Assembly: GCA_015521735.1 (NCBI GenBank) | Contig: WANQ01000030.1 | Coordinates: 30,659 to 94,658 of the forward strand | Source of the DNA: Pyrodictiaceae archaeon | Lineage (GTDB): Archaea; Thermoproteota; Thermoprotei_A; Sulfolobales; WANQ01 | Length of the DNA: 64,000 nt | Direction of reading: 5' to 3' | In this document: positions 32,889 through 36,185 of the stretch, piece by piece | How positions within the stretch are numbered: the stretch's first letter is position 1 | Layout: each line of letters opens with the position of its first letter | Translations under genes and position numbers: made by a program | The notes under the pieces: model-generated | What the model was told of the DNA's origin: nothing | The model's database searches: none | What the model saw: only the letters and a program-made list of their open reading frames with translations

Positions 32889-33422
32889 TTATATTTTATA
32901 CACTTTTACTTGTCTCCCGTTTGGGTACGTATATGTGAGCTGGGTTTTTGTTTGTGCTATTGCTATTGCTACTAGTTGTGTTCCTCCGCTTATGTCTATT
33001 ATTTTTGGATTTAGCTTTTTTAATGCTTTCTTGATTTCCTCTATTACTTGTTTGGGTGCTAACTGGTTTGTTGGTGCCATGGGTGTTGTTTCTATATGCT
33101 TTACTAGTCCTATTTCTTTGTATATTGTTAGTGTTTGATGACTATACTTAGCTACTGGATGAGTACCTTGAGCTACTTCTGGGCTTGTTATAACCTTTAC
33201 GGGGTTGGGATAGTTGACTGCTAGTATTGCTATTAGTATCTGTGGAGAAAAGCCTAGTGTAAGAGCATCAGGTATTATTTCTGCTGTTGTTAATTCTTTA
33301 GCTGTAATTAATGCCTTTATCGGGTTTTCTTCAACTATTTTAATCCATTTATCGAGAACCTTAGGATCCTTCTGGTAAATTGTGTAAGCTTTAAACCATA
33401 TATTAGGGATGTCTAGCTTCAT
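32889..33422 (-). CDS. Small stand-alone CARF-like (Csa3-type sensor fold) protein, 177 aa, no effector domain
   Basis: ALTLGFSPQILIAIL (the CARF beta1 LGF loop), VKVITSPE, and KIIDISGGTQLVAIAIAQ (the D-I/V-T/S-G-G-T loop). The ATG at 33422 overlaps the upstream TGA (ATGA). The ORF-track start at 33443 is a TTG and less likely. Confidence 0.55.
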   Translation of the reverse strand: MKLDIPNIWFKAYTIYQKDPKVLDKWIKIVEENPIKALITAKELTTAEIIPDALTLGFSPQILIAILAVNYPNPVKVITSPEVAQGTHPVAKYSHQTLTIYKEIGLVKHIETTPMAPTNQLAPKQVIEEIKKALKKLNPKIIDISGGTQLVAIAIAQTKTQLTYTYPNGRQVKVYKI

Positions 33423-34822
33423 GACGTCCTTGGCCTTGTCCAAGATATCACCTTTGTATCCTTTCTATGAAGCATTAATGAAGCTATTGTTGTATGAAGT
33501 GTTGATCCACCAGCTATGTATGTTATCATTGAATCCTTATCCTTCTTCCTTAACATATACTCTATTGTGCTCTTAATAACATGCTTATCTACACCTGAGG
33601 AAAGCAGTATTTTTGATTTTCTAATGTTGCCGATACTTCTCTTAATGTAATCTATGTATGCCTTGCCTAGCACGGCATGGGGTAGTGTTAACGGTGTAGC
33701 TATAATCCATATAGTTTTTGGAAGCGGAATATTTAGTGTGCTATATAGTGCTAGCAGAAGAGCTATATCAATGGGTCCCATTTGCTCACTCCATTCAAAA
33801 ACCACAATATCACCTAGTACCGTATTATCATTCTCTCCGTGAACCTTACTATATAGCCATTCAAGAGTATTCAGTACACTATTAATTCTTCCAAGAGCCT
33901 TTGCTGAAAGGTTCTCCAAACTGTAAGCATGGGTATCTGAACTGTTACTAGACAAGAATAATTTCAATCTCCCATCGACTTCAGCTACGTATATCAATTT
34001 CTCAAGTTCTCCGGATAGACTATTACGACAACTAATGTGTTCGGGCAAGTTCTCATAGAGTATAGTGAATATTCTGTTTACTTCTAGTTTAACCTTATCT
34101 TCCTCATCTGGTCTTATAGACCATACAGCTGTTGTCTGAGCAGCTCTCGTAGCTAATGGTGCTCTAAGTGTTTTAGTAAACCCCGCTGCAATTGCTATAG
34201 TAGAAACTATTTTATCGACAATACTACAATGACCGTTATTACCCTTGTATGGGCTTAATACCAGTAATTTATCCAGGACTTCGCCGCTATTATGTAATTT
34301 AAATCTCTTTAGGAGTGTACGTAATATGTCTTCAATGAAAGCGAATTGTAATGCTATGTACTTAATGGTTGTACCGAAACGGTCAACACCACTAGTAAGA
34401 GCATATAATGCTATTTCCGATACACAATGTATTCTCCGTATATCAGGTCTATTAATAACATTCTCGGAAATATATGCCGTGCTCTTAACATATTTATGAG
34501 TAAACGGAGATATTTCAGAACTTTCCCTGTAACTGCTTCCCTCAATAAATAGTATTGATATTCTATCAACACTTAAGTTCGTTAAAGGATTAATGTTTAA
34601 ATACTCTAGAATTCTTTTGCTCAATGGATCATTGGTTATCAAGTCTACTATTACATCATCAATAGCTTCTTGATCACTATAACCTTTGACTAATATGCCA
34701 TAAATTTTTACGCTCTCCATTAATTGTAAGTTGGATGCGAGCCATATGTATGCAATATTAGTTCTGTTATTGGTTATACTGTTAAGCAATAATGGGTTCT
34801 CTGAAGGAGTGAAGAGGAACAT
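33419..34822 (-). CDS. Uncharacterised 467-aa protein with C-terminal CARF-like domain
   Basis: C-terminal IWIIATPLTLPHAVLG, KILLSSG and SMITYIAGGSTLHTTIASL mirror the CARF strand/loop pattern. The N-terminal ~370 aa has no recognisable motif. The ATG at 34822 lies 5 nt after the upstream TGA; the alternative TTG at 34876 would overlap the upstream gene by 49 nt. Confidence 0.5.
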   Translation of the reverse strand: MFLFTPSENPLLLNSITNNRTNIAYIWLASNLQLMESVKIYGILVKGYSDQEAIDDVIVDLITNDPLSKRILEYLNINPLTNLSVDRISILFIEGSSYRESSEISPFTHKYVKSTAYISENVINRPDIRRIHCVSEIALYALTSGVDRFGTTIKYIALQFAFIEDILRTLLKRFKLHNSGEVLDKLLVLSPYKGNNGHCSIVDKIVSTIAIAAGFTKTLRAPLATRAAQTTAVWSIRPDEEDKVKLEVNRIFTILYENLPEHISCRNSLSGELEKLIYVAEVDGRLKLFLSSNSSDTHAYSLENLSAKALGRINSVLNTLEWLYSKVHGENDNTVLGDIVVFEWSEQMGPIDIALLLALYSTLNIPLPKTIWIIATPLTLPHAVLGKAYIDYIKRSIGNIRKSKILLSSGVDKHVIKSTIEYMLRKKDKDSMITYIAGGSTLHTTIASLMLHRKDTKVISWTRPRTS

Positions 34823-34827
34823 AATAT

Positions 34828-36147
34828 TCACTTGCAATCCCCCATTGATATTACGTCGTCTAGACTTTGAAGACAATAAAATCTTTGAGATCTTACACTA
34901 CCATATCTATTCTTAATGTCAATTATATGGTTATCCTCTAGCTTTAATAACCCTTCCTTGGCATTAACATAGTTTGTTGGTATAGGTTTCTTAGGTACTA
35001 GAACAAATATTCTTGGTGTTACCGAGTCTTCATATCTGTTATACATGTATTCAATAAATTCTACTAACATGTGCTTAGGGAATTCAGACAATATTATGAA
35101 GCAAGTATTTTCAGGCTTACTAATTATTTCATGCTTATGTAATACCATGTAGTCTGGTTTTACATAGCTTATTTGACAATATTTTACGATCATGTTGTTT
35201 GTAGAGACCTCACGGCATTCATTATCAGTAATATTAGTACATATGTTATCGGGTTTTAGTCCTAATATCTTGCCAACATCTTCACATGATTCTTTAGTGC
35301 CTATGAAAACTATCTCAGCGTCATTAATCTTTAAGATAGTCTCCCATAAAACTTTCTTAACCTTGTCAACAACTGTTTTTAAAGTAGGTGTTAGTATTAT
35401 TATCTTCTGACAGTTGTATTTCTTGACTTCATTATGAGTGAGACATTCATGACGCTTGTATTCATCGTATTTTTTATCAACTATCTTCTCCGCTAATTCT
35501 TTAAAATGCTTACTGGTTATATTGTTCTTCAGGCCTTTAATGTTATATATGAGGTTATACTTATACCTGGCAACATCCTTAGATAGACAAATAATACTGT
35601 TAATATTATTTCTACATCTATCGTATTTAGTGAAAGGTATTTCTATAAAATTATCACTCAGAATTTTTAGAGACTTAGGGGAATAGTGTATTAATGCTAT
35701 GTTTAACCAATTATTAATGCTAAAGAATAAGTTCTCAAGCAAGGCTATGTGTGTAAGAACTTTGTTAAGATAACCTATATTACAAAATGGATTATCAAGA
35801 AGTTCTAGGAATGTATTACTATGTTTAACAAGCTTTAAGGGAAGACCAACATTACCGTATTCTCTTGCATCTAAATCTTTTGGACTATACGGATTAATAC
35901 TTATGGTTCCGGGCGGAGTATCGAGAAACTTAAACAAGTCACTAAAAATATCTGTTGGTCTTCCCTTAAATTCACATGCAGTAATATCATAGTTGTTATG
36001 TATTAGGATTACATCTACTTCAACAACACTAGGATAAAACATAGTGAGCTCACTGAAATCGATAACAAAGGATCCTTCAATCCACAGAATACTACGCAAC
36101 CAGTATCCCAAGTAATGTATGAATTGGTATGGGTAAAAATCTTTCAT
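34828..36147 (-). CDS. Uncharacterised 439-aa protein: N-terminal PD-(D/E)xK-like nuclease core plus C-terminal alpha/beta (Rossmann-like) domain
   Basis: VEVDVILIHNNYDITACEFKG gives D-x13-E-x-K, as in Hjc/NucS-type nucleases. The C-terminal pattern is KIIILTPT...AEIVFIGT...TCFIILSEFPKHM...RIFVLVP. The ATG at 36147 sits about 30-38 nt downstream of a TATA box. The ORF-track TTG at 36168 would be too close to it. Confidence 0.5.
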   Translation of the reverse strand: MKDFYPYQFIHYLGYWLRSILWIEGSFVIDFSELTMFYPSVVEVDVILIHNNYDITACEFKGRPTDIFSDLFKFLDTPPGTISINPYSPKDLDAREYGNVGLPLKLVKHSNTFLELLDNPFCNIGYLNKVLTHIALLENLFFSINNWLNIALIHYSPKSLKILSDNFIEIPFTKYDRCRNNINSIICLSKDVARYKYNLIYNIKGLKNNITSKHFKELAEKIVDKKYDEYKRHECLTHNEVKKYNCQKIIILTPTLKTVVDKVKKVLWETILKINDAEIVFIGTKESCEDVGKILGLKPDNICTNITDNECREVSTNNMIVKYCQISYVKPDYMVLHKHEIISKPENTCFIILSEFPKHMLVEFIEYMYNRYEDSVTPRIFVLVPKKPIPTNYVNAKEGLLKLEDNHIIDIKNRYGSVRSQRFYCLQSLDDVISMGDCK

Positions 36148-36176
36148 TCTAGAATAATCACTATACAACGACTAAC

Positions 36177-36185
36177 ATATATAAA
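36177..36185 (-). promoter_or_regulatory. TATA box (TTTATATAT) of the three-gene accessory operon
   Basis: The plus strand reads atatataaa at 36177-36185. The distance to the ATG at 36147 fits a leaderless or short-leader archaeal transcript. Confidence 0.4.

Follow-up and report, generated by a model that had tools for sequence, protein, structure and literature searches.

A candidate cyclic oligoadenylate-responsive three-gene module beside the type III-B CRISPR operon of a Pyrodictiaceae archaeon

The ancillary effectors through which type III CRISPR systems act under the control of cyclic oligoadenylate (cOA) are growing in number, and with each new architecture came new chemistry or another mode of regulation. 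Effectors that combine CARF sensor domains with PD-(D/E)xK nuclease domains are known, for example Can1, in which a pair of CARF domains that differ from each other is combined with two nuclease-like domains (bioRxiv 10.1101/784280). Equally, enzymes that degrade the messenger have been described, such as the Crn1 ring nuclease Sis0455, with a catalytic Ser after strand 1 and a Lys at the base of the pocket (S11/K106; PMC9638899), and Csx3/Crn3, a Mn-dependent ring nuclease for cyclic tetra-adenylate (cA4) (PMC12409355). A census of type III accessory genes from 2018 lists, furthermore, an AAA_15/'Cas_RecF' block and HerA/NurA, the latter being type III-associated in crenarchaeal thermoneutrophiles (Shah et al., 2018; PMC6546367). 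Here, a stretch of 64,000 nucleotides of contig WANQ01000030.1 from a Pyrodictiaceae archaeon (positions 30,659 to 94,658 of the forward strand), subsequently called the window, has been analysed with respect to three genes on one strand, A, B and C, that stand beside a type III-B (cmr) operon. Nothing recognisable as A, B or C is found in the 2018 census (PMC6546367), and a literature search brought up no paper describing these families.

With a probability of roughly 0.5, A, B and C are a cOA-responsive module of the type III-B system, with B as the sensor, A as a nuclease-type output and C as an off-switch or buffer. That the three genes constitute a genuine type III-B accessory module is very probable and that this module reads cOA is rather probable; the role of A as the nuclease output is put forward tentatively. 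A CARF-based type III ancillary module is of a known kind; the candidate novelty consists of two protein families and a split, inverted architecture. In this form, the evidence supports the original prediction, a cOA sensor/effector module proposed from the nucleotide sequence of the window, as a candidate explanation.

The A-B pair is a conserved unit, which is recurrently placed within or beside Cmr operons. Neither family is represented in Pfam, NCBIfam or PADLOC and both are very rare, yet they are repeatedly found in Cmr operons of hyperthermophilic archaea. A word-indexed search of 5.8 billion proteins retrieved two non-self relatives each for A and B, a HMMER search with an A profile against 1.84 billion representatives retrieved eight proteins at E <=0.001, and a metagenome scan with the alignment of B from the window clade retrieved no relatives. 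The HMMER pass together with a scan of JGI metagenomes led to a sister clade with an A protein of ~350 aa and a B protein of ~420 aa, the identity of A between window and sister clades being 19-22%. Relatives derive mainly from metagenome-assembled genomes (MAGs) of Desulfurococcales, but also from a Pyrolobus sp., Bathyarchaeia and uncultured metagenomic lineages. At every locus A and B overlap or are separated by a gap of <=18 nt, and the third gene beside the pair is either C, in the window clade, or Csx3/Crn3, in the sister clade. In the DNA retrieved around the pair, cmr genes are present in 8 of the 11 non-identical sister-clade lineages and Csx3 stands beside it in 9 of them; where cmr or Csx3 is missing the contigs end too early, with the three lineages devoid of cmr residing on contigs of <=6.3 kb. 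Among the C-bearing loci, type III linkage is seen in the window, in L002 with A-B 3-6 kb from RAMP genes, in L010/L011 and in L006/L007/L015 (all loci are listed in the table). As homologs and gene order are conserved on other contigs, A, B and C are real genes and not chance open reading frames (ORFs).

A particular arrangement is found in a Bathyarchaeia MAG (L018), where a gene encoding a C-type CARF domain fused to an A-like region is followed by a B-like gene. The tail of this fusion protein aligns weakly with the A profile in hhalign over 328 collinear columns (P 0.012, with shuffled sequences at P of at least 0.14); the 10 kb upstream are occupied by housekeeping genes such as those for an ABC transporter and an acyl-CoA ligase. 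A 527-aa gene of L006 was considered as an A homolog, an assignment that is unsupported (P 0.32).

Several additional features accompany the relatives. Between cmr3 and A-B, the sister clade carries an AAA_15/SMC-like ATPase and two small proteins of ~165-218 and ~161-184 aa (5733-7916 in L019, 7496-9913 in L020 and 3659-6057 in L022; also in L026-L036), a block that is probably the counterpart of 'Cas_RecF' (cluster 17) in Shah et al. (2018). In L001 of the window clade, an AAA_15 ATPase and a 122-aa protein adjoin A (728-2367). Two ORFs take the place of a single A gene in L026 (2344-3428), L027 (3809-4892) and L035 (4226-5298), which may be due to a frameshift, a pseudogene or an assembly error. 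Furthermore, an additional CARF7-like gene and a second Csx3-like gene (339-2386) adjoin Csx3-A-B in L037 of the sister clade, a stack of several messenger-handling genes.

Profile searches identify protein C as a divergent stand-alone CARF domain, which spans residues ~50-177 subsequent to a conserved helical N-terminal extension of 50 aa. None of its 24 non-self homologs is annotated. The window protein matches six CARF profiles of PADLOC (E 4.5e-4 to 6e-3). In a scan of the full set of 25 members, the 20 most-matched PADLOC families are without exception CARF families (best E 3.1e-6), with CARF3 matched by 12/25 and the closest matches to CARF3 and CARF1. In Pfam, the window protein touches solely Csa3_N (E 0.004; 17.6 bits versus a gathering score of 27), a model matched by 8 of the 25 members with a best E of 7.8e-4, below the Pfam cut-off. 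A profile search of PDB sequences with the C family returned only Can2 (E 0.26); here the DISGGTQL loop of C aligns with the GGT loop in the CARF domain of Can2, and the PADLOC CARF profiles match the larger region in which LGFSPQ and DISGGTQL are both located. LGFSPQ, TSPEV and DISGGTQL are invariant in 25/25 sequences. C is located outside the Crn1 clades, with CARF_m13 matched by 1/25 (E 0.0068) and CARF7 by 0/25 members. Its S59, part of GFSPQ, is invariant and placed in the loop equivalent to that of Crn1 Ser11; no invariant Lys occurs in the CARF core, the sole invariant Lys being K18 in the N-terminal extension. Pfam detects no HTH family in C, whose CARF domain extends to the last residue (177), in agreement with the predicted stand-alone CARF protein devoid of a DNA-binding domain. 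Equally, the suggested function as a ring nuclease or sponge gains support by analogy, as Csx3/Crn3 occupies the same slot in the sister clade. An assignment of C to the type III-associated 'cluster 108' proteins (~180 aa) of Shah et al. has been rejected, as cluster 108 possesses an N-terminal transmembrane signal that C does not have.

In protein B, an unassigned N-terminal region is followed by a C-terminal domain for which the AlphaFold 2 (AF2) model indicates a CARF fold, as had been predicted. The unassigned region comprises ~330 aa instead of the ~370 aa initially estimated, since the CARF-like domain already begins at a conserved EWSEQMGP strand-loop. The top matches of the model in Foldseek searches include Cam1 (8t64; probability 1.00, target-normalised template-modelling score (TMt) 0.52-0.63) and Card1 (6wxw; probability 1.00), with Cdn1 in complex with cA4 (9u49), Csm6 (8jh1) and Sis0811 (7pqa) as further matches of the C-terminus. 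The model is moderately confident over residues 150-467, with 10-residue means of the predicted local distance difference test (pLDDT) of ~52-84 over residues 335-467. A relationship between the two CARF-like families is suggested by hhalign, which aligns the B domain (10 sequences) with the C family (25 sequences) from end to end over 98 collinear columns (P 0.0028), thereby pairing EWSEQ with LGFSPQ, IATPL with ITSPE and AGGST with SGGTQ. E346, Q347, P350, T376, Y389 and G439 of this domain are invariant (16/16). The N-terminal region contains conserved residues of its own, namely R148, Q159 and G311 in 16/16 and H109 and K113 in 15/16 sequences. A HEPN domain has been considered for B and rejected, as there is no Rx4-6H motif around the conserved R148.

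Protein A combines an N-terminal region with a PD-(D/E)xK-like acidic cluster, a helical middle region and a C-terminal Rossmann-like domain. E24, P39, E43, D45 and E59 are invariant in 19/19 non-identical relatives, and in hhalign the motif coincides with the D..ExK motif of a PDDEXK_10-like protein (P 0.0065), in an alignment restricted to the motif with 21 columns. NERD of Pfam weakly matches 2/9 members (best E 0.055), with no better profile match available; beyond NERD, no PD-(D/E)xK family profile in Pfam, PADLOC or the PDB profile search matches the N-terminus. The predicted order of an E...ExD strand, a hairpin, an ExK strand and a helix would fit the core of restriction endonucleases in what is here an unreliable part of the model. 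The proposed nuclease-like N-terminus thus stands as a motif, with its PD-(D/E)xK identity at motif level only, and the predicted succeeding Rossmann-like domain is present in the model, where strands and helices alternate over residues ~240-385 with block pLDDT means of ~62-87, mostly near 80. Foldseek returns weak generic Rossmann matches for this domain, among them a ring nuclease of the CARF type, Sso2081 (E 0.049, probability 0.41), and a comparison of the A model with viral structures gave nothing meaningful. P254, T284, S287, E355, P357, K358 and P385 in its loops are invariant wherever the region is present. In hhalign this domain shows no similarity to the CARF domain of either B or C, and A is therefore not called a CARF protein.

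Within gene A, a perfect 18-nt inverted repeat has been observed (35834-35851 and 35953-35970), of which one arm encodes EFKGRPT, holding the ExK motif, and the other NVGLPLK. An RNA stem is predicted over 35825-35980 of the minus strand (-42.6 kcal/mol, z = -4.7). The repeat pair never arises in shuffled windows and is absent from the homologs in L001, L002, L004, L019 and L020.

The original prediction had named placement of the proteins in housekeeping families, location of relatives mostly away from type III loci and missing conservation of the proposed residues as grounds against it. None of these grounds applied. What has been found is that A and B match no family and that C and its 24 homologs match CARF profiles only, that relatives reside mostly at type III-B loci, and that the acidic residues E24, E43, D45 and E59 of A, G439 of B and the SGGT loop of C are fully conserved, with K61 of A, discussed below, as the exception.

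At the locus itself, the three same-strand ORFs are all present as predicted, and so is their tight coupling, with TGA, 5 nt and ATG at the A-B junction and with B and C overlapping by ATGA; likewise, all quoted motifs, including D45-x13-E59-x-K61, occur in the translations. The proposed TATA box is present as a TATA-like element. In the public gene call A starts at Met36 (404 aa); the longer ORF of 439 aa is preferred because conservation reaches upstream of Met36 (ILWxEGS...). The three genes had been described as directly upstream of the cmr operon; they are upstream on the same strand, but separated from cmr4 by an AT-rich gap of 620 bp. This spacer contains no ORF of at least 80 aa and probably holds a separate promoter of the cmr operon. 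The AT-rich composition claimed to be common to the trio and cmr has been recovered as a low-GC island at ~23400-36600 with a GC content of 0.31-0.39, compared with 0.42-0.48 on both flanks, with the trio and the cmr genes inside; no direct repeats that would mark an integrated element flank the island. A scan of the window for sigma-70 promoters and terminators remained at shuffle level, the sigma-70 model not being applicable to archaea. Rfam has no match within the window, no CRISPR array is present in it and no tandem repeat lies near the trio genes. Two imperfect direct repeats of 18-20 nt with 85-89% identity connect the spacer upstream of cmr4 (32382-32399 and 32484-32503) with the region downstream of cmr3 (20906-20923 and 22375-22394, respectively), which may well be due to chance.

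The type III-B operon adjacent to the trio is complete. Its Cas10 possesses an HD motif at residue 14 and, as predicted, retains GGDD (residue 853). The statement that no canonical effector is encoded next to it needs qualification and is weakened as an argument, as a stand-alone CARF7 gene and an abutting HEPN gene are located past cmr3 at a distance of 3 kb, where the low-GC island has ended and the GC content is normal. They might represent a ring nuclease of the Crn1 type or, alternatively, a CARF and HEPN pair in split form. Between cmr3 and the CARF7 gene, a 335-aa ORF (21260-22267, minus strand) with no family match in Pfam or PADLOC contains a metalloprotease-like HEQAH motif (HExxH). 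Immediately on the other side of the trio, NurA (397 aa) and HerA (633 aa) are encoded on the plus strand at 37620-40739, in DNA of higher GC content.

Table. Features of the window (positions counted from its first nucleotide) and loci with relatives of A, B or C
Feature	Position	Strand	Basis or description
Gene A	34828..36147	-	ATG at 36147, stop at 34828; 439 aa; ORF and translation
Gene B	33419..34822	-	ATG at 34822, stop at 33419; 467 aa; ORF and translation
Gene C	32889..33422	-	ATG at 33422, stop at 32889; 177 aa; ORF and translation
TATA-like element TTTATATAT	36177..36185	-	~34 nt upstream of the gene A start codon; read from sequence
Putative catalytic core of A, D45...E59-x-K61 (VEVDVILIHNNYDITACEFK)	35965..36015	-	Conservation and hhalign
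Rossmann-like alpha/beta domain of A, residues ~240-385	34993..35430	-	AF2 model
CARF-like domain of B, residues ~335-467	33422..33820	-	EWSEQMGP / IIATPL / LSSGVD / AGGSTLHT
AT-rich spacer, C to cmr4	32270..32888	-	~620 bp, GC 0.31; sequence and composition
Type III-B operon, complete	23413..32269	-	Pfam and PADLOC
Cmr4	31283-32269	-	Pfam/PADLOC
Cmr5	30777-31277	-	Pfam/PADLOC
Cmr1	28903-30753	-	Pfam/PADLOC
Cmr6	27967-28893	-	Pfam/PADLOC
Cas10/Cmr2	24564-27962	-	Pfam/PADLOC
Cmr3	23413-24567	-	Pfam/PADLOC
Stand-alone CARF7 gene, 279 aa	19493-20332	-	PADLOC CARF7--CARF, E 4.5e-64
HEPN gene, 163 aa, abuts CARF7 gene	19001-19492	-	Pfam PF05168, E 3.4e-25
L001 (window clade)			8-kb contig with A-B-C and, upstream, AAA_15 ATPase; ATGA overlap of B and C
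L004 (window clade)			Second A-B copy in the same MAG
L002/L003 (window clade)			A-B; C 2 kb off beside Cas6-like gene and RAMP genes
L008/L009/L014 and L013 (window clade)			A-B-C amid housekeeping genes
L010/L011			Window clade; A'(397 aa)-B'(470 aa), both divergent in sequence, co-directional into Cmr operon 294-RAMP-234-492-RAMP-Cmr2; C divergently oriented
L006/L007/L015			Window clade; C and B-like gene near RAMPs and HD-Cas10
L017			Window clade; C and Cas6-like gene, 7 kb from GGDD Cas10-like gene
L005/L012			C beside HTH gene, without A-B
L018 (window clade; Bathyarchaeia MAG, CAYUYX010000011.1)	9986-11686		C-type CARF domain, N-terminal, fused to 390-aa A-like region
L020/L028/L031 and L029 (sister clade)			On one strand: Cmr4-5-1-6-Cas10-Cmr3-AAA_15-small-small-A-B-Csx3
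L030 (sister clade)			Like the L020 order, without the ATPase block
L019, L027, L032, L034, L035, L036 (sister clade)			Equivalent arrangements

In the proposed mechanism, recognition of target RNA would cause the GGDD cyclase of the adjacent Cas10 to synthesise cOA. The most likely ligand is cA4, as the partner genes, Csx3/Crn3 and CARF-type proteins, are cA4-specific in characterised systems. B might detect the signal via its C-terminal CARF domain, and A, translationally coupled to B, would pair with B and deliver the output by a metal-dependent nuclease-type site formed from its N-terminal E24, E43, D45 and E59, with K61 as an additional candidate residue; the C-terminal Rossmann-like domain of A may pair with the CARF domain of B. 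As a small dimeric CARF protein, C might bind the same messenger and either degrade it as a ring nuclease or buffer it, and would thereby set the response threshold and turn the response off, a role that Csx3/Crn3 would fulfil in the sister clade. C and Csx3/Crn3 would thus be interchangeable off-switches beside a two-subunit A-B effector. A more specific version of the mechanism, which is unlikely, is that A and B are an obligate heterodimer, a 'split, inverted Can1', in which the CARF domain of B and a degenerate CARF-like Rossmann domain of A form one asymmetric cA4 pocket and the ligand activates the nuclease of A against the N-terminal region of B, with C or Csx3/Crn3 as the exchangeable off-switch gene.

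Several observations weigh against a cOA-responsive module with these assignments. Complex formation between A and B, cA4 as the ligand, the nuclease activity of A and cleavage rather than mere binding by C are all inferred. The model of B has been derived from an alignment of three sequences (mean pLDDT 56, predicted template-modelling score (pTM) 0.65), and its Foldseek E-values of 8e-3 to 0.4 are weak, yet consistently point to one family; only one of ten B relatives matches a CARF profile (PADLOC CARF2--CARF_HEPN, 8.4e-4), and the profile search of PDB sequences with the B family gave chance-level matches only, as did the searches with the N-terminus and the C-terminus of A. In the AF2 model of A, pLDDT amounts to only 20-35 over residues 1-233, the part that would hold the predicted nuclease fold. 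Position 61 of A is Lys in 12/19 and Glu in 7/19 relatives, and divergent A-like proteins show ExT (L008) or ExV (L010, L016 and L018) in its place. The SGGTQ loop of C has no obvious counterpart of the catalytic Lys of Crn1. As to the genomic context, no cas gene is found within the ~3-10 kb flanks examined of the trios in L008/L009/L014, L013 and L018, and the CARF7 and HEPN genes of the window could serve Cmr, so that the trio is not the sole candidate signalling partner.

It is somewhat unlikely that the N-terminus of A is not a nuclease, with the acidic cluster binding a metal or nucleotide for other chemistry or with the effector residing in H109, K113, R148 and Q159 of B, an explanation that overlaps with the cOA-responsive module as such. 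The Lys of D..ExK not being family-wide and the lack of a significant profile or structure match of A to any PD-(D/E)xK family would agree with it, as would the invariant polar residues that B displays within a 330-aa region of no recognised fold; the spacing of the A motif and the predicted placement of its strands, however, fit a restriction-endonuclease core, and the hhalign motif match and the weak NERD matches point in the same direction. A Glu in place of the Lys of the nuclease motif has, moreover, a precedent in BamHI (D94/E111/E113). It is quite unlikely, on the other hand, that A and B are associated with Cmr without reading cOA, as structural or regulatory partners in assembly, crRNA handling or transcriptional or post-transcriptional control, and that their CARF-like domains are generic Rossmann modules. 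Such a role would be compatible with the sister-clade gene order, where A-B stands inside the cmr operon and follows cmr3 either at once or with AAA_15 and the two small proteins in between, with the generic Rossmann matches of the A C-terminal domain and with the single B member in ten that matches a CARF profile. It is difficult to reconcile with C being specifically CARF in all 20 top families, with the best structural matches of B being cA4-binding CARF domains and not generic Rossmann enzymes, with a third slot filled by Csx3/Crn3, of which the only known substrate is cA4 (PMC12409355), and with the occurrence of the trio also away from cmr, a pattern that ancillary effectors typically show and core subunits do not.

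That C alone binds cOA, as a ring nuclease or sponge, and that A-B is an unrelated defence or toxin pair riding in the same island is very unlikely. C does occur without A-B beside an HTH gene (L005/L012) or a Cas6-like gene (L017), AAA_15 ATPases typical of defence islands are present in L001 and L022, and the trio region is a compositional island, all of which would agree with such a passenger pair. A cOA-related gene, C or Csx3, nevertheless stands beside A-B in both clades despite their deep divergence, both the window and L001 show an ATGA overlap of C with B, C is apparently fused to an A-like protein in L018, and B carries a CARF-like domain of its own. The preferred explanation is the cOA-responsive module of all three proteins. 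If true, it would constitute a heteromeric effector with reversed domain order together with a new stand-alone CARF family, and the two clades would represent a natural experiment on the exchange of the off-switch, CARF versus Csx3. A thermostable signal-activated enzyme might, if this holds, also be of use in diagnostics.

In comparison with known systems, C resembles Crn1 (Sso2081/Sis0455, CARF_m13, and Sis0811 of CARF7) as a stand-alone CARF protein of ~180 aa at crenarchaeal type III loci whose invariant S59, in the loop that follows strand 1, corresponds in location to the catalytic Ser of Crn1; it differs by an N-terminal extension of 50 aa instead of a C-terminal insertion or HTH domain and has no conserved Lys that matches K106/K169. 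With Csx3/Crn3 it shares the slot directly beside A-B, in the sister clade, but the two are of different fold and not homologous, so that the equivalence is positional only. Csa3, a regulator with a CARF and a wHTH domain, is the origin of the sole Pfam model touched by C and has similar loop motifs, whereas C has no HTH domain and its match to Csa3_N stays below threshold. The CARF domains of Cam1, Csm6 and Cdn1 are the best structural matches of residues ~335-467 of B, although in these proteins the CARF domain is placed otherwise and combined with transmembrane, HEPN or other effector domains, none of which the N-terminal 330 aa of B match. With Can1, Can2 and Card1, the latter among the best structural matches of the B CARF domain, the A-B pair shares the combination of a CARF sensor with a D..ExK motif, the location beside type III loci and, as proposed, the drive by a Cas10 cyclase. 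In mode of action these effectors would be its nearest counterparts, but A-B does not belong to their group; neither A nor B matches the CARF4--CARF_PDDEXK profiles of PADLOC. Can1, Can2 and Card1 are single polypeptides with CARF N-terminal to the nuclease, while in A-B the parts are split over two genes and the order is reversed, with the nuclease-like region N-terminal and the Rossmann/CARF domain C-terminal; A has, in addition, a long helical middle region and a C-terminal domain that is not demonstrably CARF. By analogy, an A-B heterodimer would resemble the two unequal halves of Can1 and, should the 'split, inverted Can1' turn out to be true, it would be the first two-gene, heteromeric CARF effector.

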